DNA from: Fischerella sp. PCC 9431
GTDB lineage: Bacteria; Cyanobacteriota; Cyanobacteriia; Cyanobacteriales; Nostocaceae
DNA length: 24,000 nucleotides
Assembly (NCBI GenBank): GCA_000447295.1
Contig: ALVX01000004.1
Direction: 5' to 3' (one strand)
A program made the translations under genes and the position numbers. The stretch's first letter is position 1, and each line of letters starts with the position of its first letter. Shown here one piece after another: positions 3,229 to 22,194 of this stretch. The notes beneath the pieces are model-generated. The model was not told where the DNA came from. It was given only the letters and a program-made list of their open reading frames with translations, and searched no databases.

Positions 3229-5366
3229 TCCAATTAGCAACTGCTTATCAAAAAACGGTTGATCATACAATTATTAATCTTAAATATCTTGCTTCAGAAT
3301 TTATAGAGTTAATGAAAGCTCTGTTGGAAAGATTATTAGAGAAATTGAAGGAAGAAAAAGAGAAATTATCTAATATAGAAGTAAAAGTTGGTAGTGAAAA
3401 ATATCGACTTGTGCCAGATGAGCAATTTCCTGGTGCATGGAAATGGGAATCCGCCAAAATGACAGATTTTCAAGCACAGACTGTCGCAAGGCGGTTGATG
3501 CTGACAGAAGCAATGGGAGAAGCGGTAGATATTGATCAAGCCCAAAATAACTGTTCTTTAGCCATAATTGTCACGACTGAATTTGGGGAAAAGCTTGTAG
3601 TTTACCACCAAAATTGTGAGGGACAATGCCTTACCAATTTGGTGACAGAGAATTTAAATGCTGAAGAAATAATTGATATAGCTTACGAAACGCTTACTCC
3701 TAATCTGCTATCAGCTGCCTCTGAAATTGTAGAAGAAGTAGGAGCAGAATTCACAGAAATAATTGATGAAGAGACTGAAGAGCATGTTGTTGATAGTGTT
3801 GCTCCTCAATCCCCTGAAACAGAAGAAAGCACTATTGAAAATAGAAGTGTAGAAGACTACTCATCAGACTGGGAAGACTCAGTCATTATCTGGGATGAAA
3901 ACGCACCACTTCCAGAACCACCAGAAGAAGACTACCCAAATGATTTTAGCGAAGAAGGGAGAACACCAGCAGAGTCAAAAGAAATTTTGGCACTGACTAA
4001 AGTTAACCAAGTAGAATCGAACACCGAACCACAGTCACAAGTTAATGATATATTCCAAGAAATGCTAAATAATCCAGCTGCCCAAGAGGTGATTGAGGAA
4101 GATACTGACAAATCAAAACGCAAGTCAGCTTTTGAGTACACTTACGATGAAGTAGCTTCTGCCAAAGAAGTCAGTCCCCAAACCAAAAACTGGGTGAGGG
4201 AAGTAGAAATATCTATTAAGAAAGCTGTTGCTAACAGTCGTGCGGAACGTCAGCGCCAAAAACAGGAAAACATCGATATTGCTAAAGCTGCTAAGGAAAT
4301 GCTCAAGGCGTATGCAGAAACTAATCCTGATGGCAGTAGAATTTACAGAAGCGATGCGTTCGTGATTCGACACAAAGGAGACAAATACAGCATTCACCGC
4401 CGTCATGATGAGCTTACTAACTTTGCCAATCCTCTGATGGAGTTTACTGAGAACTCTAAAGGGAAGATAAAAATCACAACTCCTCCTACACAGATGTTAG
4501 CAGTGGAAAGACAGGAGTTTTTAATGGTGGCGGAGCGACTAGAATCGGGTAAAAAACTGCCCCAATTAGCAAATGCAGATTTGAGAGATGTTGCTAATAA
4601 TCTTGGTTCTCTCGCGCCTGCTGGCACTTTTAAAACTCTAGAATCTTTTAGACAAACTGAGATGTTAGGATTGCTAAATTCTGCATTACAAAAAGCCAAC
4701 ACAGACACTCTAACTGTGGGAGAATACACGATTTTGAGAACGAGGAACATAGAAGCAGGAACAGCAAATCTTTCTCTTTATAAAAGAGCAGAAACTGGAG
4801 AAAGCAGAGAGTTATTATCTTTTACTTTACAAAAAACAGATACAGGTTTAACTAAGCAGGTGAAAAAATTGAACATCAACGATTGGGATTTAGCCCAGTT
4901 AAAATTCATCTCCGAAAATGCTAAAGCTTTTGAATTAAATCACGTTCTTGAAAACTCCAGAGAACAACAATCAAAGAAGTCTGTCTCTGAGATTAAAGTC
5001 CCTCTCCACCCAGCAATTCAACAAGCTTGGAACCAGTTAGAGACTCAGGGCGGTTCTAAGTGGCACTCTAGTATCAGACAAGAAAATGAGCAAATTAGAC
5101 AGAACCTGCAAGAATTTCAGGGAAAATTATCAATTACCGAACAGAGAGAACTGTATTTTCAAATATTAGCTCAACAGCAGTTGGACTCTTCAACTGAACA
5201 AATCAAAATGCCACCACTTAAGGAAATAATGAAAGACCTGCTTTCTTGGCGGCAAGAGGCTATATCTAATAAGTATACCCCCAAACAACATATTCCTATG
5301 ACGCAAGAAAAAACTGCTAGCAGAAATTCTACTAACTCTAGAAGAAAAGCGGAAATGTCACTTTAA
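3210..5366 (+). CDS. Hypothetical 718-aa protein with a highly acidic, low-complexity central region
   Basis: Long uninterrupted ORF with only short antisense ORFs. An E/D-rich segment runs roughly from EEVGAEFTEIIDEETEEH to PEPPEEDYPNDFSEEG. I could see no relaxase 3-His or Walker motifs. Confidence 0.6.
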   Translation: MFDERVIQLATAYQKTVDHTIINLKYLASEFIELMKALLERLLEKLKEEKEKLSNIEVKVGSEKYRLVPDEQFPGAWKWESAKMTDFQAQTVARRLMLTEAMGEAVDIDQAQNNCSLAIIVTTEFGEKLVVYHQNCEGQCLTNLVTENLNAEEIIDIAYETLTPNLLSAASEIVEEVGAEFTEIIDEETEEHVVDSVAPQSPETEESTIENRSVEDYSSDWEDSVIIWDENAPLPEPPEEDYPNDFSEEGRTPAESKEILALTKVNQVESNTEPQSQVNDIFQEMLNNPAAQEVIEEDTDKSKRKSAFEYTYDEVASAKEVSPQTKNWVREVEISIKKAVANSRAERQRQKQENIDIAKAAKEMLKAYAETNPDGSRIYRSDAFVIRHKGDKYSIHRRHDELTNFANPLMEFTENSKGKIKITTPPTQMLAVERQEFLMVAERLESGKKLPQLANADLRDVANNLGSLAPAGTFKTLESFRQTEMLGLLNSALQKANTDTLTVGEYTILRTRNIEAGTANLSLYKRAETGESRELLSFTLQKTDTGLTKQVKKLNINDWDLAQLKFISENAKAFELNHVLENSREQQSKKSVSEIKVPLHPAIQQAWNQLETQGGSKWHSSIRQENEQIRQNLQEFQGKLSITEQRELYFQILAQQQLDSSTEQIKMPPLKEIMKDLLSWRQEAISNKYTPKQHIPMTQEKTASRNSTNSRRKAEMSL

Positions 5367-5499
5367 AAAATAAATATTGAAAAATCCAGGTTGTACAGAA
5401 AATTATTACTACACTGCTAGGGCTATAATTTCAATAATCTACTACGCTATCTTAAAAAGAAAGGTGGTGTGAATAAAAGTAAAGCTTTGCTCTAAGAAA

Positions 5500-5760
5500 A
5501 GTTTTAACCTGGATAAAAGCCAGTCAACAACCCACCACTGACCTGGAGTACCAGGTACAGTGGGGGCTTGAAAAACAGCCCTAGTTGACCCGTCTTAGTA
5601 CCTTGAGTACTACGTTTTTTGAGTTACGATACCTACGAATGCGACGCCAGTTTGTAGCTCTGTCATCTAACGTTAAACAACCATTTGGGAGGTAGTGCGT
5701 TAGGTCTAACAAGCTCTTAAAACATTGACTAGGCGAACTTTACCCGAAAGGAGGGACTTT
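5500..5760 (+). ncRNA. Candidate omega-RNA (HEARO-type guide RNA scaffold) of IscB; ends not determinable by eye
   Basis: 394-nt gap (5367-5760) with no ORF directly upstream of iscB, which is where omega-RNAs are encoded. It holds several stem-loops: ACCTGG-agta-CCAGGT (5541-5556) extended by CACTG/CAGTG; GGGCT/AGCCC near 5564-5581; and TAGTAC-cttga-GTACTA (5596-5612) followed by T6. Confidence 0.4.
5531..5561 (+). repeat. Left copy of the 31-nt hairpin repeat CCCA(C)CACTGACCTGGAGTACCAGGTACAGT
   Basis: Direct comparison with 7137-7167 shows a single mismatch at the fifth base. It contains the 6-bp palindromic stem ACCTGG/CCAGGT with a 4-nt loop. Confidence 0.85.
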
Positions 5761-7044
5761 ATGTCCAAAGTGTTTGTTATTGATTTAGAAAAACGACCAT
5801 TAGATCCAGTTCATCCAGCACAAGCGAGGCAGTTATTACGAAACAAAAAAGCAGCAGTTTTTAGACGTTTTCCTTTCACAATTATCCTGAAAGACTCACA
5901 GGCGTACGCACCAGTTCAACCAATAAGGTTGAAAATTGACCCAGGTGCGAAACACACAGGTATTGCATTAGTTAACGATTCAACTGGTGAAGTTGTCTTT
6001 GCTGCTGAGTTAAAGCATAGAGGCTTTGCAATTCGAGATGCTTTAACTTCTAGAAGACAATTAAGACGCGGTAGAAGGAATCGCAAAACCCGTTATAGAA
6101 AACCTAGATTTCTCAATAGAACCCGTCTAGAAGGATGGTTAGTGCCAAGTTTACAGAGTCGTGTTGAAAACATCAAAACTTGGGTTGAAAGACTACGCAA
6201 ACTTGTACCGATTACAACTATCAGTCAAGAATTAGTACGCTTTGATATGCAACTAATGCGTAATCCAAATATTCAAGGTAAAGAATATCAGCAAGGCACT
6301 TTAGCAGGTTACGAAACTAGAGAATATTTATTAGAGAAGTGGGATAGACAATGCGCTTATTGTGGTGTCAAAGACGTTCCACTACAGATAGAACATATTC
6401 ACCCTAGAGCCAAAGGAGGTAGTAACTCGATTACAAATTTGACCTTAAGTTGTTCTAAATGCAATACAAACAAAGGAACTAAAGACATCAAAGATTTTCT
6501 CAAAAAAGACCCATTGCGGTTACAGAAAATCTTGAAACAAGCCTGCATACCTTTAGCTGATGCAGCAGTAGTCAACACAACTAGATTCGCTTTATTTGAG
6601 GTTTTGAAATCGACAGGTTTACCAGTAGAAACAGGTTCTGGTGGATTAACAAAGTTCAATCGTAGTCAACAAAATCTAGAAAAATCTCATTGGTTAGATG
6701 CTGCTTGCGTTGGTAAATCAACACCGATTCTTGATATCAAAAGCGTTAAACCGTTGCTGATTACTGCTAATGGTCATGGTACTAGGCAATCATGTCGCAC
6801 AGACAAGTTTGGATTTCCTAATCGCCACTGTTCAAGGACTAAATTTCATTTTGGTTTTCAGACTGGCGATATTGTGAAAGCGGTTGTTACTTCTGGTAAG
6901 AAAGTAGGCGAATACGCTGGAAGAATTGCAACTCGTGCATCTGGAAGTTTCAACATTTCAACCAAGAACGGATTGGTTCAAGGTATCTCATACAAATATT
7001 GCAAACATATTCATAAAAAGGATGGTTACTCGTATGCAACCTAA
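5761..7044 (+). CDS. iscB: IscB, an OMEGA-family RNA-guided RuvC/HNH nuclease (Cas9 ancestor family), apparently intact
   Basis: PLMP-like N-terminus (VFVIDLEKRPLDPVHPAQARQLL). RuvC-I is KIDPGAKHTGIAL. Arg-rich bridge helix is RRQLRRGRRNRKTRYRKPRF. RuvC-II is ISQELVRFD. HNH is CAYCG...IEHIHPRAKGGSNSITNLTLSCSKCNTNK. RuvC-III is SHWLDAACVG. The C-terminal FQTGDIV...GRIATRASGSFNI resembles the TAM-interaction domain. GGAGG lies 6 nt before the ATG at 5761, so the TTG at 5725 in the ORF track is probably not the start. Confidence 0.85.
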   Translation: MSKVFVIDLEKRPLDPVHPAQARQLLRNKKAAVFRRFPFTIILKDSQAYAPVQPIRLKIDPGAKHTGIALVNDSTGEVVFAAELKHRGFAIRDALTSRRQLRRGRRNRKTRYRKPRFLNRTRLEGWLVPSLQSRVENIKTWVERLRKLVPITTISQELVRFDMQLMRNPNIQGKEYQQGTLAGYETREYLLEKWDRQCAYCGVKDVPLQIEHIHPRAKGGSNSITNLTLSCSKCNTNKGTKDIKDFLKKDPLRLQKILKQACIPLADAAVVNTTRFALFEVLKSTGLPVETGSGGLTKFNRSQQNLEKSHWLDAACVGKSTPILDIKSVKPLLITANGHGTRQSCRTDKFGFPNRHCSRTKFHFGFQTGDIVKAVVTSGKKVGEYAGRIATRASGSFNISTKNGLVQGISYKYCKHIHKKDGYSYAT

Positions 7045-7072
7045 GAAATTAGGAATTGCTCAACTGTCCCAT

Positions 7073-7104
7073 AGCTGTGTTTGTGCGTTAGCACAAAAAC
7101 AGCT
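7073..7104 (+). other. Imperfect 14-bp stem-loop just downstream of the iscB stop
   Basis: AGCTGTGTTTGTGC-gtta-GCACAAAAACAGCT with one mismatch in the stem and no T-run. It could be a transcript-stabilising structure or part of the right end. Confidence 0.4.
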
Positions 7105-7136
7105 ACGGGACGTTTCACAATTCCCCCTCCATTCCT

Positions 7137-7167
7137 CCCATCACTGACCTGGAGTACCAGGTACAGT
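7137..7167 (+). repeat. Right copy of the 31-nt hairpin repeat CCCA(T)CACTGACCTGGAGTACCAGGTACAGT
   Basis: 30/31 identity with 5531-5561 in the same orientation, located 93 nt after the iscB stop. Confidence 0.85.
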
Positions 7168-7189
7168 CAGGGTCTCCTGGAGGTTTGAG

Positions 7190-7456
7190 ATGACAAAAAG
7201 TAAAAAATCTCAAAGAAAGATAAAGCAGCTTTTATGCAGAATTTGCAAGAAAAATCCTGTGTGGCGTTATAAAAACTCAGATGGTACAGTCTGCAAGCGT
7301 TGTTATCACAAATATATTTGGGAAGATAGACCAAGTGCCAAAAAGGAAAGACAATCCACTATAGTTAATTATGAATTAGAAGAAACAGAAGAACTGGTTT
7401 TTGACGGGTATACTGGGCAGTTTTATTCAGCAAATCAATATCCCTGGTGGATGTAA
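7190..7456 (+). CDS. Small basic protein with a 4-Cys zinc-ribbon-like motif
   Basis: CRIC-x17-CKRC motif and a Lys-rich N-terminus. GGAGG lies about 7 nt upstream of the ATG. No family recognised. Confidence 0.45.
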   Translation: MTKSKKSQRKIKQLLCRICKKNPVWRYKNSDGTVCKRCYHKYIWEDRPSAKKERQSTIVNYELEETEELVFDGYTGQFYSANQYPWWM

Positions 7457-7636
7457 ATATTTAGCAAAAGATAAATTAAATACTGAATATTAGGGTATAA
7501 AGACAGATTTTTAGATAAAATTTGATTATACTAGTATCATAATTTACTGGTGAGTGAAAAAATAGCCCATAGAGTTTAGTGTGGGTGATTTTGATTCTGG
7601 TATGCTGAAACCGAGGTTGTAGAAAGTTCTTTGAAA

Positions 7637-7936
7637 ATGCCAATTGTCCGAAAAAGATACCCAAGCAACTGGAACGAAATTTCTCTTGCAGTCAGAGAAG
7701 CTGCTGGATGGAGATGTCAGCATTGCGATCGCCTTTGTTTTCGTCCTGGAGAAAGACCTAAAACCCTAACTCGTTCGGAATGGACGATGGCAACTCTTAC
7801 AGTTCATCACGCAGACTTTGCTCCTGAGAATAACAACCTCGACAACTTGATCGCTTTGTGCGCTCCTTGCCACTTGGCGCTGCACGCTAGAACTAGGCGT
7901 TCAAATGTCTCGCCAGGACAACTCTCTTTGTGGTAG
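7637..7936 (+). CDS. Small HNH endonuclease
   Basis: CQHC ... HHADFAPENNNLDNLIALCAPCHLALH, i.e. an HNH core with paired CxxC zinc ligands. The ATG at 7637 is preferred over the TTG at 7631. Confidence 0.75.
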   Translation: MPIVRKRYPSNWNEISLAVREAAGWRCQHCDRLCFRPGERPKTLTRSEWTMATLTVHHADFAPENNNLDNLIALCAPCHLALHARTRRSNVSPGQLSLW

Positions 7937-9668: not shown

Positions 9669-10486
9669 TAAAGATTCATTAACAAAGTTTAAATGCAGAC
9701 TCTCTATGTTTCCCAACAGAACTGCTATGTCGCCTTGCAACAAGAAAAACTGATAGTCAAACAAGGCGAAACTATACATGCACAGGTGCAATTGCCATTA
9801 TTAGAACAAATTTTGATTTTCGGCAATTCCCAGGTTAGCACCCAAGCTATTCGGGCATGTTTATGGCAGAACGTTCCCATAGCCTATCTTTCCCGTATGG
9901 GTTACTGTTACGGTAGGTTATTACCGCTCTTACGAGGATATCGCCAGTTGTCACGCTATCAACAGCAACTTTCAACAGTTGAACGGTTGATTACTGCACG
10001 AGCGATCGCCCAAACTAAAATCAAAAATAGTCGAGTTTTGCTACGGCGACAGAAAAAACGACTAGAATCAGAAGAATTGGAAAAAACACTGCAAAATCTT
10101 GATTATTTGGCTGCTCAAGCAGGTGAGGCTGATAGCTGGGAACGATTATTAGGATTTGAAGGTGCAGGTGCGGCTCAGTATTTTTCAGCTTTTGGCAAGT
10201 GTATCACAAACCCAAATTTTGTATTTACCGGGCGTAGTCGCCGTCCTCCGGGAAATCCTGTCAATGCGATGTTGAGCTTTGGTTATCAAGTTCTGTGGAA
10301 TCATTTATTAGCACTAATTGAACTCCAAGGACTTGATCCTTATTATGCTTGTTTGCATCAAGCACATGATGGTCATGCAGCACTAGCTTCAGATTTAATC
10401 GAGGAGTTCCGCGCTGCTATTGTAGACTCTTTGGTATTGTGGCTGATTAATCGTAAAATTGTTGATGCTCAACAAGACTTTGAATA

Positions 10487-11674
10487 AGCTGCTACGCAGC
10501 TTGATTGTATAATTATGAGTTAAGTAACCAAGCTATAATCAGCCACCTATGCCAGCAAAAAACCATCTTTCTCAAGAGCAGAAGGAACGGCTACTGAAAA
10601 CGCTAAAGGAGCATGAAAATCCATATGTAAGAGAAAAGGTTTTGATAATTTTGTTGATAAATGATGGAAAAACTTATCAAGAGATTAGTAGTTTTTTAGA
10701 TATTGCATATCCAACAGTAGCTTACTGGGCGGTTCACGGTGATCCAGATGATTTAGAAAGTTTTTTAGATGGGAGAAGAGAAGGTAACTTCCGTAAAGCT
10801 ACTAAAGAATATGAGGATTTGCTATTAGAAGTAATTGAAAAAGACCCGATAGAATATGGATATGAATTTGGTCGATGGACGGCGGCAAGACTAGCAATAT
10901 ATCTCGAAGAAGTAACAGGGATTAAGTTAAGCGGCTCTCAAGTCAGGAGAATATTAGAGCGAAAAAAGTACGTTTACCTCTGGGCAAAGTACAGCCTAGA
11001 GGACAAACAGAATCCTGAAAAGCGTAGAGCATTTAAAGAAAAACTATCCGAATATTTAAGAATAACGAAGGAAACACCAGAACGTTTACAGGTATGGTTT
11101 TGGGATGAAAGCGGATTTAGTTTAAGAGTCATAAGAAGAAAAACATGGGGTCGTAAAGGTCATAGAAAGAAAGTGACAGGACAAAGAAGAAAAGGAAGAG
11201 TAAATATTATGGGAGGGTTGCGTTATCATGATAAGAAGAGAATAAACTTTGTGATCAAACAAGGAAATGCAGATGTTTTTTATGAACAACTAAAATCCCT
11301 GAATAATTTTCTCATGCAAGAATGGCTAGAGTCAGGAAAAACAATAGAAGAATTTAAAAACTGCTCTGCAAAAATAGTAATTATATTAGATAATGCTAGC
11401 TTTCATAAAAGGAAAGATATTTTAGATAAAATTGAGTCAGAAATGCCAAATATTATCCTAGAATTTTTGCCAGAGTATAGCCCAGATTATAATTTAATTG
11501 AACTGGTTTGGCATTCAGCAAAAGAATATATAGCTCATAGATTATTCGAGTCAGTTTCACAACTAGAAGAGTTGTTAAATAAATTGTTAAATGAAGGAGG
11601 TCTTGTTATTAAATGGGAGCGCAAGATCAAAAATAAAGGTAATGCTGTTTATTAAATTTAGCTGCGTAGCAGCT
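10487..11674 (+). mobile_element. IS630-family insertion sequence (1188 bp) with a TA target-site duplication
   Basis: Terminal inverted repeats are AGCTGCTACGCAGCT (10487-10501) and AGCTGCGTAGCAGCT (11660-11674). They are flanked by TA at 10485-10486 and 11675-11676. The element has a single intact transposase ORF. Confidence 0.9.
10549..11655 (+). CDS. IS630-family (Tc1/mariner-like) DDE transposase
   Basis: N-terminal HTH-like region. DDE-type motifs are WFWDESGF, IILDNASFHK and YSPDYNLIELVW. The ORF is intact at 368 aa. Confidence 0.85.
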   Translation: MPAKNHLSQEQKERLLKTLKEHENPYVREKVLIILLINDGKTYQEISSFLDIAYPTVAYWAVHGDPDDLESFLDGRREGNFRKATKEYEDLLLEVIEKDPIEYGYEFGRWTAARLAIYLEEVTGIKLSGSQVRRILERKKYVYLWAKYSLEDKQNPEKRRAFKEKLSEYLRITKETPERLQVWFWDESGFSLRVIRRKTWGRKGHRKKVTGQRRKGRVNIMGGLRYHDKKRINFVIKQGNADVFYEQLKSLNNFLMQEWLESGKTIEEFKNCSAKIVIILDNASFHKRKDILDKIESEMPNIILEFLPEYSPDYNLIELVWHSAKEYIAHRLFESVSQLEELLNKLLNEGGLVIKWERKIKNKGNAVY

Positions 11675-11887
11675 TATCACAATGGCGGTTGTTATTTAAA
11701 TGATTCTGGACGAAGGAAATATTTGAAGGCATTTGTGCAGCGCATGGCAGAGGAAATACAAACTGATGCAGGTGAAAAACAACCGAAATGGGATTTACTC
11801 AACCGACAAATTAAGGCTTTTAAGCAGTTTGTCTACAATCCTAGCCATCATTATCAGCCTTATCGAATTGATTAAAGCCAATCAATC

Positions 11888-12169
11888 ATGTTGTTGTACG
11901 TTGTAGCTTATGACATTCCTTGCAACAAACGCCGCAAAAAGGTATCTGATTTATTGGAAGGCTATGGGCAAAGAGTTCAATATTCTGTCTTTGAGTGCCA
12001 GTTGACTACAGATCAATATAATGAACTTCGCAAGCGGTTAAAGAAACAGGTAAAATTAACAGAAGATAATGTGCGATTTTATCCATTATCACGGCATACT
12101 TTGGCACAAGTGGAAACTTGGGGAATTGGATCACCTGTGATTGAACCACCCAGTTCTGTGATTATATGA
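11888..12169 (+). CDS. cas2: CRISPR-associated endoribonuclease Cas2
   Basis: Canonical N-terminus MLLYVVAYDIPCNKRRKKVSDLLEGYGQRVQYSVFEC, 93 aa, directly between cas1 and the array. Confidence 0.9.
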   Translation: MLLYVVAYDIPCNKRRKKVSDLLEGYGQRVQYSVFECQLTTDQYNELRKRLKKQVKLTEDNVRFYPLSRHTLAQVETWGIGSPVIEPPSSVII

Positions 12170-12357
12170 GAGCAAGTACCGAAGTTCAGCCCAAATGCTG
12201 CAAATGCCTATTGTTGTGTTGTGAACTTCGGTTCTTTATGGGATAAGGTTTTTAGCCTTTTTGGTTGGAGGAATTGAGATGTTTTTGTCTATAAAATCTC
12301 TGAACTTCGGAAATCGGCTCTGGAAATCTTACTGGGTAACGGTTTAAAATGGGACTC
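12170..12357 (+). promoter_or_regulatory. CRISPR leader region
   Basis: AT-rich 188-nt region between cas2 and the first repeat, with the degenerate repeat at the far end of the array. It contains the inverted repeat ACCGAAGTTCA (12178-12188) / TGAACTTCGGT (12222-12232) and a further TGAACTTCGG copy at 12301-12310. I could not place a convincing -35/-10 pair. Confidence 0.55.
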
Positions 12358-13268
12358 TCCCCACTCGCTGGGGAAACTAATTGAATGGAAACATTGTTTG
12401 TTCTTCCTTCATTCGCATCAGCTTGGCTCTCCCCACTCGCTGGGGAAACTAATTGAATGGAAACCTCCTACGAAACCCACCTGTCCTTTAGATGTTCCGT
12501 CTCTCCCCACTCGCTGGGGAAACTAATTGAATGGAAACAGAAGAAGATGTGTAGGTAAGATTTTTGATCTTGTTTACTCCCCACTCGCTGGGGAAACTAA
12601 TTGAATGGAAACATAAAGTAAACTTTAGTAATTGATTAGCTTTTGCACTCCCCACTCGCTGGGGAAACTAATTGAATGGAAACACTTGTTGTGTAGATTA
12701 AAGCACAATGCTCTTTGATCTCCCCACTCGCTGGGGAAACTAATTGAATGGAAACTTCAGTGTAGACAACCCCTCAGCTAATAATTGCTTGACTCCCCAC
12801 TCGCTGGGGAAACTAATTGAATGGAAACATTGTTTAAGGTTATATCAAAGTTTTTAGAGGAAAATACCTCCCCACTCGCTGGGGAAACTAATTGAATGGA
12901 AACTTTCGATATCAAAAACATTTACAGTCTGATCAAGAATATACTCCCCACTCGCTGGGGAAACTAATTGAATGGAAACGTTATTAAATATTTGTTTATT
13001 AATAATATGCTATCCTCCCCACTCGCTGGGGAAACTAATTGAATGGAAACCTATATCATATTCTATTTGATCCGTTGAGAATATATTTCCTCCCCACTCG
13101 CTGGGGAAACTAATTGAATGGAAACGAAGTCGGACTTCCTTGAAACCGAGACCAGGAAACTCCCCACTCGCTGGGGAAACTAATTGAATGGAAACTTCTA
13201 TGTTGGTTGTCGTAGGGAATAAAGAAAAAGGACTCCCCACTCGCTGGGGAAACTAATTGAAATGTCAA
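12358..13268 (+). CRISPR. CRISPR array with 13 repeats (12 full, last one degenerate) and 12 spacers of 34-40 nt; repeat CTCCCCACTCGCTGGGGAAACTAATTGAATGGAAAC (36 nt)
   Basis: Repeat starts are 12358, 12429, 12503, 12577, 12648, 12720, 12793, 12868, 12944, 13015, 13090, 13160 and 13233. The first repeat has one C fewer in the C-run. The last repeat matches 28 nt and then diverges (..CTAATTGAAATGTCAAG). The repeat can form a CCCCA/TGGGG stem and ends in GAAAC, which supports + strand transcription. Confidence 0.97.
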
Positions 13269-13297
13269 GAGATAAGAAAATATTCTTGACTATTTTT
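13264..13297 (+). terminator. Possible weak intrinsic terminator after the array
   Basis: GTCAAGA (13264-13270) pairs with TCTTGAC (13284-13290) and is followed by TATTTTT. The loop is large (13 nt) and the stem is AT-rich. Confidence 0.3.
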
Positions 13298-13434
13298 CTA
13301 TAGAACCTAAAAGTCTTTCCAGCCAACAATCTGAAGCATTTTTCATATATTATTCCGAATATGTACAGAAATTCGACAAAACCAGATAACAATTAATACA
13401 ATCTAATCTGGAGGCTAAGAAAGGAAAATTACTT

Positions 13435-17567
<4,133 letters not shown>

Positions 17568-17579
17568 GGCAAGAAAATA

Positions 17580-18362
17580 ATGATTAATTCTATTTACCTC
17601 TATCTACTTTCTCCATTACATACAGGTGGTGCAACTCAAGAAGGTAATTTACTAGGAATTGCCCGTGAATCTCATACTAATTTACCTTACATACCCTCCA
17701 GTACTATTCGCGGTAAAGTTCGGTCAACTGTTACAGACGAAAAAATCAAATATCAACTATTTGGCAATGAGTTAAAAGATGGAAACCAATTAGAACAAGG
17801 TAACATTTGGATTGGTGATGCTTCTATATTGTGGTTACCTGTACCTTCTTTAAGTCATAGTGTAGTTTGGATTAGTTGTCCTATGTTGCTACAACGTTGG
17901 CAACGTCTACAAGGTAGTAATTTAACTATACCTCCTGAATATAGTTGCAACTTTGCTAATGGTAAATCTGCTGTTTATCTCAAAGATGCAATAATCAAAG
18001 CCGATAAATTACAAGCTTGGGAGAAATGGGAAGAATTTGTTCCCAAATCATCAGCAACAAGTTCTATAAATCGTTTATTAGTTTTACCAGATAAACATTG
18101 CGCTACATTAATACAAATGAGTTTATGGCGACAAGTGAAAATTAAACTAGATGAACACAAATCGGTAGATGGTGGTTTTCGTTATGAAGAAGCAATTCCC
18201 CCAGACACATTAATGTATTTACCTTGGGGAATCACATCTCAAGCTAACGGCACAGGTGAGAAATCATCTCAAGATTTTCAGAATTTACTAGCTGCAAATG
18301 AAATCTTACAAATTGGTGGGCAAGAAAGTTTGGGAAGAGGATTTGTCCAGCAGTGGATGTAA
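17580..18362 (+). CDS. cmr4: Cmr4 (backbone RAMP subunit); the canonical catalytic Asp is apparently not conserved
   Basis: LLSPLHTGG...LPYIPSSTIRGKVRS at the N-terminus and LQIGGQESLGRGFV at the C-terminus are typical of Cmr4. See the finding on the missing Asp. Confidence 0.85.
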   Translation: MINSIYLYLLSPLHTGGATQEGNLLGIARESHTNLPYIPSSTIRGKVRSTVTDEKIKYQLFGNELKDGNQLEQGNIWIGDASILWLPVPSLSHSVVWISCPMLLQRWQRLQGSNLTIPPEYSCNFANGKSAVYLKDAIIKADKLQAWEKWEEFVPKSSATSSINRLLVLPDKHCATLIQMSLWRQVKIKLDEHKSVDGGFRYEEAIPPDTLMYLPWGITSQANGTGEKSSQDFQNLLAANEILQIGGQESLGRGFVQQWM

Positions 18363-18390
18363 ACATTTAGTAGTAAAGGAATTAATTAAT

Positions 18391-18792
18391 ATGACATTTG
18401 ACCCCAGAACAATTGCAACACCAATTTATAAAGCCTTAAATAAATTGCGTTCTGAATCTCATCAAGATGATACTTGTTTAAAGCAACAAAAAGGGCAAGC
18501 AGTTGAACTTTACACTTATCTTTCTACTTGGGGGATGATGCGACTAAAGGCTGAAGAAACAGCTTTGGCAGATAATATGAAAGGTAAAAAACAGATAGTA
18601 AACAAGTTTTTTCAATGTTTACAAGAACTATCAGGAATAGAGGGTTTAGCGAACGAACAAGGTTTAGTCACTTTAAAAAATCTGGATACAGATGAATATT
18701 TAGGTTTAACCGGGTTAGGACTAGCTTTAGCACAAGAGTTTAGTTTTTGGGCTACTGCTATTTATTCAGATATTGAGGGAGATGCAAACTAA
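18391..18792 (+). CDS. cmr5: Probable Cmr5-like small subunit
   Basis: 133-aa ORF whose composition looks helical, in the cmr5 position between cmr4 and cmr6. The ATG at 18391 follows AAGGA; the ORF-track start at 18298 would overlap cmr4. The assignment rests on position and size only. Confidence 0.5.
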   Translation: MTFDPRTIATPIYKALNKLRSESHQDDTCLKQQKGQAVELYTYLSTWGMMRLKAEETALADNMKGKKQIVNKFFQCLQELSGIEGLANEQGLVTLKNLDTDEYLGLTGLGLALAQEFSFWATAIYSDIEGDAN

Positions 18793-20723
18793 TGGTATTT
18801 GATAGACCTCAACCTAATCAACCGAAAAAACCTCAACCACCTGCAACTACTAAATCAGATATGAATAAACCTAAAAAAGTAATTACTGTTGGTGTTGGTA
18901 GTAATTCTGGTGGTCATGGTGGCAGTAATCAGCCTTCTCTACCTTCTCCTTGGTTAAATCCAAAAAATCCACCTCAACCAGATCCCACAGCTAGCTTTGT
19001 AGAATATCTGCGTTGGATGCGATCGCTTGATAGCGAGTACAAAGATGCAACGAAAGTACAGTTACTCCAGATAGCTGAGGAAAAAGCAAATTACCGCGAT
19101 CGCCTCACTCAGCTAATGAAACGCACTCAGCTAATTGCCAGTGATACATTTCAAGTCAAGTGTCCTTGGCGAATTCGGGTAGGTGGGCATCGAGGCCCAG
19201 AAAGTATTCTCCTACCAGCCTTTGATGCTTTGGGAATGCCTTATATACCTTCTAGTACTCTGCGCGGTGTTGCTAGAACTCAGGCCATTAGAGAAATTAT
19301 GCTGCAAAAATCCCTGGAGTGGAAAGCAGCAGAGAAAGAAGTTGCGCCTTGGTTTGGTGCTTTAGAAGCCAAAAATGAGTGCGATCGTACAGGTAAAGTT
19401 ATTTTTTTAGATGCTTACCCTTTACCCGGACAAAAGATATTAACGGTAGACATAGCAAATAATATTTGGCAGTGGAAAGATGACTCACTAGAATATAGTC
19501 CTAACCCTAATGTATTCTTTTCTCTCCAAGAAGCAACTTTTTTAATTGGTTTACGCCTAGCTAGTGGTTGTCAAGATGACACAATTTTAGCCCAGGTGAA
19601 ACAGTGGTTAATTGCAGGCTTACAAGCTGGTGTGGGTTCTCAAATTAACAGTGGTTATGGTCAATTAAATCCTGCAGGTAAAGTTAATTCTCAAAGTGAA
19701 TTTTTCCGAGTTGAATTTATATTAGAAGGTCAATTAATTCACGGTAAGCAACAATTTAAAAATATTAATCAACCTTATAAACCAGATAAAAAAGGGAATT
19801 TAAGAGCCGATACAATCAATTATGCAGAAGTCCGTCCCGTTGCTTTTAAATCTATGCTACGTTATTGGTTTAGAGCTTTTGCATTAGGAATTTTAGAACC
19901 AATACAAGTTAAAACATGGGAAAATAAGATATTTGGTGGAATCAACCCAAGTAGAGAATATGGTTGGTTAATGGTCAGAGTTTTAGAAGGCATAATTATT
20001 CAACAAGAACCTCAAAATGAACGTGATAAATGTGGCGAGCAACAAGGAATTTTAACATTAAATCACTCACCAGCAATTCCCAAAGATAAACTAGATAATT
20101 TCCAGAAATTAACTCAAAATCTTACTTGGTTAATGTTTCACTTAGGTGGTATTGGTCAAGGTGCAAGAAGACCTTGTTATTCTCGCCAAAACCGTCCTTA
20201 TATGCGTGGTTCGACCTTAATTCCTGAAAGTGAAGATTCATTTTGGAAATTACCCAAAACTCCTAAAGAATTTCAGCAATTATTTATAAAAAGATTAGAA
20301 AGTTTTTATCAAGCACTACAAGCTTTAGGCGCAAATTTTAATCCCCGTCAACTTAGAAACTGTGGCACAGTCAACTCATTTACTTGGCTGGAAGCTTTAG
20401 ATCTTAATGCCCAAATTATAGTTGTCAGTAATGAAGACAATGACAATAAAGGATATGCATTAAGCATTTTACATCAAAAATTTCATGACTTAGAAAAACA
20501 AAATTATACTGATGCAAAAAATTTGTGTGGTGGTGTGAATAAAGATTATCCAAATGGCAAAAAACGTGAGGTTATTCCTTCACCAGTCTGGATTGCCGAT
20601 TTAGGTGATTACCAAGTAGTGACAGTTTTTAGTGCTAGTAGCGATCCGCGCAAAGAGTATTTAACTAAATTACGCGATCGCAGTTCTCATCAAAGCTACT
20701 TTCAAATTTATCCTTTAACTTAA
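18792..20723 (+). CDS. Cmr6-Cmr1 fusion RAMP protein with a Pro/Gly-rich N-terminal extension
   Basis: The first half has Cmr6-like motifs (WRIRVGGHRGPES...LGMPYIPSSTLRGVAR and GVGSQINSGYGQL). The second half has Cmr1-like motifs (EVRPVAFKSMLRYWFRAF and HLGGIGQGARRP). The first 60-70 aa or so are PQPNQPKKPQPP...GSNSGGHGGSNQPSLPSP low complexity. Confidence 0.7.
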   Translation: MVFDRPQPNQPKKPQPPATTKSDMNKPKKVITVGVGSNSGGHGGSNQPSLPSPWLNPKNPPQPDPTASFVEYLRWMRSLDSEYKDATKVQLLQIAEEKANYRDRLTQLMKRTQLIASDTFQVKCPWRIRVGGHRGPESILLPAFDALGMPYIPSSTLRGVARTQAIREIMLQKSLEWKAAEKEVAPWFGALEAKNECDRTGKVIFLDAYPLPGQKILTVDIANNIWQWKDDSLEYSPNPNVFFSLQEATFLIGLRLASGCQDDTILAQVKQWLIAGLQAGVGSQINSGYGQLNPAGKVNSQSEFFRVEFILEGQLIHGKQQFKNINQPYKPDKKGNLRADTINYAEVRPVAFKSMLRYWFRAFALGILEPIQVKTWENKIFGGINPSREYGWLMVRVLEGIIIQQEPQNERDKCGEQQGILTLNHSPAIPKDKLDNFQKLTQNLTWLMFHLGGIGQGARRPCYSRQNRPYMRGSTLIPESEDSFWKLPKTPKEFQQLFIKRLESFYQALQALGANFNPRQLRNCGTVNSFTWLEALDLNAQIIVVSNEDNDNKGYALSILHQKFHDLEKQNYTDAKNLCGGVNKDYPNGKKREVIPSPVWIADLGDYQVVTVFSASSDPRKEYLTKLRDRSSHQSYFQIYPLT

Positions 20724-20730
20724 TTTCTAT

Positions 20731-22194
20731 ATGAAAGCTGCTCTAATTGCAACAATTGGTACTAGAGATTTAATGTTCCAAATTTCCTCTGGTACTTGGT
20801 ATAACATTGGCGATGATCGAATGCAAAATGGAGAGATTATTGGTGAACAAGCAGAGGTAATTTCTGACTTAGGGCTGTATAATATCAATTTTCGAGATTT
20901 AACTAAGTATTTAGTAGATAAAATTACAATTTATCAAGACCAAATTAAGCCAGTGATTATTGGTAAGCTACTCAGCGAGAAAGGCACAGATATTGAAAAA
21001 GTCTATTTAATTGCGACTGATCAAAAATTAGAAGTGCGAGAACGAGAGAAGGACACATTATATACAGCAGAGTTGATCAAATTATGGATTGTGAATCAAT
21101 TTGCTCATATTAGTGTTGAAATTATATCCTTGGGCCAGGATGGGACTAATCCTTCTAATTTTGAGCAGATGTTCTATTGGTGGCGACGAACTTGGAGAGA
21201 GAAAATTACCACTAAAGCAGAACAACCTATCTGGCTTTGTCTCAAAGGAGGAGTAGGCCAAGCTTCAGAAGCATCAAGGATTTCTGGCTTAAGCTTTTAT
21301 GGCGATCGCATTCAATTTTTTGAGTTTAAGCAAAATACTAAAGCAAATCAAGCGGGCATTCCCTCAGATTATAGTGGCCCCTTTTTGGGCAACAATTATC
21401 TTTGGGATAGAACTCAACAGCAAGCTTTGAAGCTGTTAGCCAGATATGACTATGCTGAAGTTTACGAGCTATTACAACCTTATTTTCGGCAGTCATCTTC
21501 AAGTTTTGGCGCTGTACCAAATTTATTGAAGGCAGGAATATTTTGGAACCAAAGGCAGTTTGGAAAGTTTTTGTCATTAGCTAGAAGTTCTATGGCAATA
21601 CCAGCAATTCACGAGAAATTTTGGATTGCTTACGAACAAGCTTATTTGGGTGTAGTTCGTTTGCAACAGCAAAACACTACAGAGGCAATGCTACATAGTC
21701 ATCGGGCTATTGAGGGTGTTTTATATTTGTGGACGGGCCAATCTTTTCCTCATGACTTGATAGAGGAGCCTAATCAATACCCATTGATAAAAGATTCAAT
21801 TTTAGAGAAATATCCTGCTTTAAGTACTCATTTTAATCAATCAGAAAAGCAAATATCAGAGATTTCTCTATATGGTAGAGTTCTCCGGGATCTAGTAGTC
21901 GCTGCTATCCCAGGGATCATAAATAGTAGTGATTTTTACGCATTTTGGCATCCAGCACGAGAGATGCGAAATAATCTTTCTCATCGCTTAGAAGGTTTAT
22001 CAGAAAGAGAACTATTCATTGCTTGGGGTGAAGATGTGACCAACTCAGAGCAATGGCAGACACGAGTATTAAATTGCTTGAATTTAGTTACAGGGCAGAC
22101 TTTTAGAACTTTAGCTCAAGCCAGCATTTTTAATAAACTACATAACCAAGTTTTACAAGCAATTACTAAACATGAAATCAAAGGGTTTGAATAG
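20731..22194 (+). CDS. Csx1/Csm6-like ancillary effector: N-terminal CARF-like Rossmann domain plus C-terminal HEPN (RxxxxH)
   Basis: The N-terminus shows a beta-strand/Gly pattern (AALIATIGTRD, VYLIATDQ, IWLCLKGGVGQAS). The C-terminal EMRNNLSHRLEG fits the HEPN R-x4-H motif. It is the last gene of the cmr operon. Confidence 0.6.
   Translation: MKAALIATIGTRDLMFQISSGTWYNIGDDRMQNGEIIGEQAEVISDLGLYNINFRDLTKYLVDKITIYQDQIKPVIIGKLLSEKGTDIEKVYLIATDQKLEVREREKDTLYTAELIKLWIVNQFAHISVEIISLGQDGTNPSNFEQMFYWWRRTWREKITTKAEQPIWLCLKGGVGQASEASRISGLSFYGDRIQFFEFKQNTKANQAGIPSDYSGPFLGNNYLWDRTQQQALKLLARYDYAEVYELLQPYFRQSSSSFGAVPNLLKAGIFWNQRQFGKFLSLARSSMAIPAIHEKFWIAYEQAYLGVVRLQQQNTTEAMLHSHRAIEGVLYLWTGQSFPHDLIEEPNQYPLIKDSILEKYPALSTHFNQSEKQISEISLYGRVLRDLVVAAIPGIINSSDFYAFWHPAREMRNNLSHRLEGLSERELFIAWGEDVTNSEQWQTRVLNCLNLVTGQTFRTLAQASIFNKLHNQVLQAITKHEIKGFE

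Follow-up and report, generated by a model that had tools for sequence, protein, structure and literature searches.

Among described systems, ISGst5 of Geobacillus stearothermophilus comes closest to the element reported here, which lies in a stretch of 24,000 nucleotides (the window) of contig ALVX01000004.1 of the cyanobacterium Fischerella sp. PCC 9431 (assembly GCA_000447295.1). ISGst5 is non-autonomous and of the IS200/IS605 type. It carries only an ωRNA gene and, downstream of it, iscB (GstIscB); the ωRNA (HEARO) is placed at the canonical right end (RE), which bounds it, the guide lies outside the element, and TTCAT, abutting the canonical left end (LE), was shown experimentally to be the target-adjacent motif (TAM) (Meers et al. 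2023, 10.1101/2023.03.14.532601). According to the same study iscB adjoins tnpA in only ~1.5% of cases, and a Geobacillus TnpA mobilises an IscB element in trans. The elements IS608 and ISDra2 have neither inverted repeats nor target duplications, insert 3' of a short motif that abuts LE only, and bear a subterminal hairpin at each end, the two being similar and on the same strand. In IS608 these hairpins stand about 19 nt (LE) and 10 nt (RE) from the ends. Apart from these spacings, the Fischerella element shares the properties named with IS608 and ISDra2 but has no tnpA and no tnpB. Our analysis indicates, with a probability of roughly 85%, that positions 5523–7189 of the window are an intact non-autonomous element of the IS200/IS605 family that carries only an ωRNA gene and iscB. 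As such it is an ordinary member of the known IscB/IS200-IS605 family, and the accepted picture of the biology of these elements is unchanged by it and by the family pattern described below. What it provides is a fully delimited natural IscB element with exact ends, a TAM, matched filled and empty sites and a putative native guide of 16 nt, together with a compact cyanobacterial IscB of 427 amino acids (aa) and an ωRNA that are directly testable. The element and its insertion site are as follows.

5523–7189, + strand: whole IscB element, 1,667 bp, delimited by the empty site in Fortiea contorta and the copy in Fischerella sp. NIES-4106
7190–7456, + strand: host gene of 88 aa, start codon abutting the element; the same cluster at 90% identity has an 88-aa member from Fortiea contorta
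7190–7194, + strand: ATGAC, the TAM or insertion target, which reads TCAT next to LE on the canonical strand and whose ATG is the host start codon; from the empty site and the family composition

The empty orthologous site was located in Fortiea contorta via homologues of the 88-aa neighbour gene. There, a series of genes for a type IV secretion system (T4SS) coupling protein, a 102-aa protein and a 710-aa protein is followed by the 88-aa gene, without iscB. With the junction marked by a slash, the empty site reads ...CCTGGATAAAAGTCT/ATGACAAAAAGT..., and the window reads ...AAAAGCCA/GTCAAC... at its left junction (longer alignment row, ...CCTGGATAAAAGCCA/GTCAAC...) and ...GGTTTGAG/ATGACAAAAAGT at its right junction (longer row, ...GGAGGTTTGAG/ATGACAAAAAGT...). 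The alignment thus gives a clean insertion between ...AAAAG(C/T)C(A/T) and ATGAC, with a single copy of ATGA, and both terminal inverted repeats and a target-site duplication are absent; the point of insertion directly precedes ATGAC, with which the 88-aa host gene starts. At an unrelated chromosomal site, Fischerella sp. NIES-4106 carries an IscB copy that is 95% identical in protein. Its homology to the window begins at GTCAAC and stops at ...GGTTTGAG, the identical limits, and a MerR-family gene is called as starting at the junction ATG; both ends of this copy have the same hairpin. Since the empty site and this second, independent insertion agree, the limits were set at 5523–7189. The original prediction had placed the element at 5500–7185, which was wrong at both ends; it had looked to further copies and empty sites for the exact ends, and the Fortiea site and the NIES-4106 copy supplied them. 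Copies in multi-copy genomes (A. azotica, loci L047, L052 and L054 of our comparison) diverge at the same end points. A search of plasmids for an empty site, using the joined flanks, gave no match.

Two side observations concern the copies themselves. The IscB of the window and that of NIES-4106 (P0018) differ at 22 residues, mostly within residues 41–238 (19 of them in 41–194), with one difference in the remaining C-terminal ~190 residues; this clustering suggests mosaic recombination between element copies. In addition, Logan contigs from independent runs (L084 and L085, positions 1–25) have their first base 25 nt ahead of the host ATG, within the right end, which suggests that the end sequence is multi-copy in those samples.

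Within these limits the two genes and the putative guide are arranged as follows.

5507–5522, + strand: putative ωRNA guide ACCTGGATAAAAGCCA, in the host flank outside the element; placed by the left flanks, which are unrelated up to HEARO position 1
5523–5743, + strand: ωRNA scaffold, Rfam HEARO (RF02033), 139.3 bits against a gathering score of 83, model positions 1–211 (full length)
5761–7044, + strand: iscB, 427 aa, catalytic residues intact; from Pfam, NCBIfam and PDB matches and alignments

The open reading frame (ORF) with its ATG at 5761 and its stop at 7044 was identified decisively as IscB by profile matches. It scored 459.4 bits with the NCBIfam equivalog guided_IscB (cutoff 175; residues 4–318) and contains the Pfam domains RRXRR (7.9e-73, 244 bits) and HNH. 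The top PDB matches were all IscB (TbaIscB, OgeuIscB and HfmIscB), with Cas9 far weaker. Residues D60 (in IDPG), E157 (ELVRFD), H212 (EHIHP) and H310/D313 (HWLDAA) are invariant in 20 relatives and align with the catalytic positions of RuvC-I, RuvC-II, HNH and RuvC-III in OgeuIscB (PDB 7UTN, 7XHT), a longer protein (496 aa) with the same domain order. The 427-aa IscB and the catalytic-looking motifs of the original prediction thus held up in searches of profile and structure databases, and its alternative of a non-IscB HNH family was not borne out. The element is probably active, and its IscB a putative RNA-guided nuclease. The C-terminal part behaves differently: a sequence search of the PDB with residues 320–427 gave nothing up to E = 10, and a 20-sequence profile aligned only to residue ~344; in residues ~345–427 (the last ~85) no similarity in sequence to a solved IscB could be detected. 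This segment is well conserved among relatives and occupies the position where the TAM-interacting domain is expected; a single-sequence AlphaFold model (pLDDT, the predicted local distance difference test score, of 34) was unusable for it. Look-ups of the exact protein, with the 427-aa and the 439-aa starts, returned no record; orthologues are already annotated automatically as 'RNA-guided endonuclease IscB'.

The HEARO match is directly upstream of the HNH/RuvC ORF on the same strand, as is known for RF02033, and ends 17 nt before the iscB ATG. Each of the three annotated plasmid relatives scanned also has a HEARO match. The apex of the first hairpin has 21 nt in the window against 9 in the HEARO consensus. 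By analogy with published IscB biology, the guide would be 16 nt long and external to the element. A permissive Rfam search of 5300–7500 gave only one further match, a chance microRNA match on a long hairpin (7052–7124, described below), and a scan for promoters and terminators gave no signal above chance. The sequence CTAGGGCTATAATT(T/A)CAA, with a TATAAT box (5416–5433), is kept in the Fortiea empty site (L086, ~3900), ~95 nt before the point of insertion, and is a candidate for the host promoter from which guide and ωRNA would be transcribed. In one relative (L010) the 5' end of HEARO (~1252) and iscB (4001) are ~2.7 kb apart, which implies a large insertion in the ωRNA region of that copy.

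The family was assessed in a set of 80 close relatives (75–90% protein identity, from Nostocales and other cyanobacteria) and three plasmid loci. In every relative the left boundary coincides with HEARO position 1, and the left flanks are mutually unrelated, with no motif common to them. At the right boundary an SD-like (Shine-Dalgarno-like) purine motif is followed by [A/G]TGA, and the fifth base is A in 52 of the 80 relatives. The family consensus ATGAA is the reverse complement of TTCAT, the TAM of GstIscB, which abuts LE (Meers et al. 2023). With TTCAT placed at LE and HEARO at RE in that study, the right end of the window element is the canonical LE and its left end the canonical RE. Differences from the Geobacillus system are the phylum, the fifth base in the window copy (ATGAC, not ATGAA), and the cognate TnpA, which is known for GstIscB and of which none was found among the window ORFs. 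The TAM of OgeuIscB is different, and is reported to be NWRRNA.

Both ends of the element carry a subterminal hairpin, and a third, long hairpin precedes the one on the right.

5531–5566, + strand: subterminal hairpin with repeat copy 1, canonical RE hairpin; DNA fold z = −3.6 to −3.9, and covariation
7126–7183, + strand: terminal structure with an outer stem CCTCCA/TGGAGG around the hairpin 7137–7172 (repeat copy 2, canonical LE); from folding and covariation
7052–7124, no strand assigned: long, nearly perfect hairpin that separates the iscB stop codon from the terminal hairpin; the fold of 7046–7195 has −42.9 kcal/mol, z = −9.2

The window contains the sequence CCCAYCACTGACCTGGAGTACCAGGTACAGT exactly twice, at 5531–5561 and 7137–7167 on the + strand, and none of 100 shuffles contains it. 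As a 31-nt repeat, CCCA[C/T]CACTGACCTGGAGTACCAGGTACAGT, the copies are identical at 30 of 31 positions, and the extended repeat comprises 36 nt with 92% identity. The foot of the upstream hairpin is 8 nt from the element end (5523–5530) and that of the downstream hairpin 17 nt (7173–7189), which gives spacings of 17 nt at LE and 8 nt at RE. Compensatory changes were seen at 7 of 12 pairs of the upstream hairpin (16 relatives) and at 8 of 13 pairs of the downstream hairpin (17 relatives), and both fold as DNA on either strand. End-to-end similarity of the hairpins was significant (p<0.01) in 28 of 69 elements, the window being the strongest (z = 21.6), and subfamilies have their own matching pairs: CCCACCAC...GTGGGGG; CTCAGGGCTAAAGCCnCTGAG; and CCCCAyGnnTAAAnnnGGGG. 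Across the ~80 relatives, then, the end hairpins tend to resemble each other. The upstream copy is at the same time the first hairpin of the ωRNA, where it falls within a variable-length insertion of the HEARO model. Two same-strand copies of 31 nt, read as subterminal end hairpins, were the core of the original prediction. The copies and that reading were corroborated by the mapped ends, the covariation, the subfamily-specific pairs and a motif confined to IscB elements; the prediction had not placed the HEARO ωRNA that contains the upstream copy. The long hairpin is kept in many relatives and absent from those with short tails (L018, L019, L025 and L026). A GC-rich insert of ~45 nt (TGAGCGAGTGCGTTGCGGGG...CACCTCGCG; L089, 4377–4421), nested between CATTCC and the terminal hairpin, is also present in the downstream tails of L010, L023, L066 and L068, and looks like a small dispersed repeat that invaded the end of the IscB element.

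A second property of the family is its position relative to host genes. Of 76 distinct right flanks, 35 have an ORF of 100 codons or more that starts with the junction ATG, compared with 0 for frame +1 and 2 for frame +2 (binomial p = 3e-7 against a background of 20%). The in-frame open stretch upstream of the element is short (median ~6 codons), so these ATGs are gene starts rather than internal methionines. Annotated starts coincide with the junction ATG for ParB (L002) and for the next coding sequence in L001, and junction ORFs have recognisable N-termini, such as MKILVVEDD. The distance from the end of a GAGG-type motif to the junction ATG is 4–8 nt in 70 of the 76 distinct insertions, a count to be read with the junction rule, which required such a motif. 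The corresponding motif of the window is the following.

7179–7183, + strand: GGAGG, SD-like, inside the element and 6 nt before the host ATG; read from the sequence

With this motif the element would supply a ribosome-binding site to the displaced host gene. No intrinsic terminator with a T-run was found on the + strand between iscB and that gene. On plasmid C of T. variabilis (L002, 3057–5411), parA and parB flank an IscB element, and the annotated start of ParB falls on the junction ATG; the parA/parB insertion is common to L051, L062 and L076, which are plasmids or contigs of several Nostoc strains. It may be that the Nostocales lineage of IscB is adapted to the space between a start codon and the host promoter or gene that precedes it, the TAM being the start codon, GGAGG replacing the host ribosome-binding site and the host promoter transcribing the guide; to us the arguments for and against this proposal are evenly balanced. 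If so, insertion would have almost no effect on the host gene, and the element could make its guide RNA unaided. The pattern of start codons with an SD-like edge motif bears on the persistence of such elements inside operons and on plasmids. No description of it for IscB elements was found in the searchable literature; the original HEARO paper reportedly notes integration 5' of ATGA/GTGA. Neither the start-codon preference nor the SD-like end motif was found described in the text of Meers et al. (2023).

Taken together, these properties can be accommodated in the following scheme. Transcription from upstream host DNA would enter the element and yield an ωRNA with ~16 nt of the left flank (5507–5522) as its 5' guide, and the IscB-ωRNA complex would cut DNA in which that flank is followed by the TAM ATGA(A/C). 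A Y1 transposase (TnpA) encoded elsewhere would recognise the subterminal hairpins, nearly identical and on the same strand, cutting after TCAT at the canonical LE (right in the window) and after GTTGAC at the canonical RE (left in the window). As the target motif contains ATG, copies would gather exactly at start codons, where the terminal GGAGG probably acts as the ribosome-binding site of the displaced host gene.

Several observations weigh against a TnpA-mobilised element directed to start codons. The [A/G]TGA junctions found in 80 of 80 relatives are partly built in by the junction rule, which required [A/G]TGA preceded by the SD-like motif; the right boundary is supported independently by the Fortiea empty site, the NIES-4106 copy and the genomes with several copies. 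In about half of the relatives the element does not abut a long ORF. GGAGG pairs with CCTCC in the outer stem, so that its conservation may reflect this structure instead of a role in translation. In the Brasilonema-type subfamily the end hairpins are alike in architecture but not in sequence. Finally, the transposase was searched for with phmmer in all ORFs of the window and of 87 loci, using an IS200 TnpA query validated as PF01797 (131 bits). None was present in the window, in line with the original prediction, and a Y1 transposase was found within ~4 kb in only 1 of the 88 sources, in a separate IS605 with different ends. This scarcity agrees with the published association of iscB with tnpA (Meers et al. 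2023), and mobilisation in trans by a TnpA is what we infer. The separate IS605-type element (L020, 6125–8135), 0.8 kb downstream of an IscB element, has tnpA on the + strand and a frameshifted tnpB on the − strand; it was considered as the cognate autonomous element and rejected, as its end hairpins differ. A search of plasmids with the right-end sequence for a relative that bears tnpA gave two matches, both IscB-type.

The alternative that survives best, although we consider it unlikely, is an immobile, domesticated or decaying IscB locus in which the upstream hairpin has no role beyond ωRNA structure and the copy downstream, acquired by gene conversion, acts as a stabiliser or terminator-like element. 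The hairpins would form in + strand RNA too, and no tnpA is nearby, which in turn is the rule for iscB at a ~1.5% association with tnpA (Meers et al. 2023). An immobile locus is, however, hard to reconcile with the 95%-identical copy that has the same ends at an unrelated site in NIES-4106, or with genomes such as those of A. azotica and S. hofmanni that hold multiple copies with different flanks. Decay is opposed by a full-length ωRNA and catalytic residues that are all intact, and a terminator role by the lack of a T-run terminator on the + strand downstream of iscB.

Less probable still is a spread without Y1 transposase, in which IscB breaks sites flanked by [A/G]TGA, recombination or some other route brings in a copy of the element, and the hairpins serve IscB or the ωRNA. 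This would fit a target motif that equals the TAM of IscB, an upstream hairpin physically within the ωRNA, and a cognate TnpA found in 0 of 88 sources. Homing, however, needs homology in both flanks, which leaves the insertions at unrelated MerR-family, parB and response-regulator genes unexplained, and the combination of no target duplication, a motif at one end and same-strand hairpins 8 and 17 nt from the ends is the signature of IS200/IS605, for which mobilisation of an IscB element in trans is established with the Geobacillus TnpA (Meers et al. 2023, 10.1101/2023.03.14.532601).

Least probable of all, and hardly credible, is that the 31-nt sequence is one of the generic repeats dispersed through cyanobacterial genomes (of the palindromic type or a miniature inverted-repeat transposable element), flanks iscB by chance and plays no part at the element ends, the possibility against which the original prediction had set its own reading: Nostocales genomes are rich in small dispersed repeats, and the different 45-nt repeat is nested in the right end of several relatives, but the 26-nt core had zero matches in 185,579 species-representative genomes (loop positions free) and in 241 million metagenome records, scans that yielded no further host copies either, end motifs within the 750 kb of fetched loci were confined to IscB elements, the upstream copy is a modelled HEARO hairpin, and both copies stand at fixed distances from independently mapped ends.

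The 88-aa host gene next to the IscB element belongs to a conjugative element. A gene for a T4SS coupling protein is found at 1192–2925. On the other side follow cas1 (9693–10487), an array of clustered regularly interspaced short palindromic repeats (CRISPR) at 12357–13125 with a 36-nt repeat (CTCCCCACTCGCTGGGGAAACTAATTGAATGGAAAC), and type III-B cmr genes from 13435, so that the predicted context between conjugation genes and a CRISPR locus was recovered. Around the empty site in Fortiea, 4 kb to either side is free of CRISPR genes, and the adjacency in the window therefore looks incidental. An IS630-like transposase (DDE_3) is encoded at 10549–11655, between cas1 and the array (region 9693–22194). 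Downstream of the 88-aa gene, an ORF of 101 aa (7631–7936) has an HNH-like CxxC...HH...CxxCH pattern and a weak match to ZorE-HNH (E = 4.8e-5), and Fortiea has an ORF of 99 aa at the same relative position.

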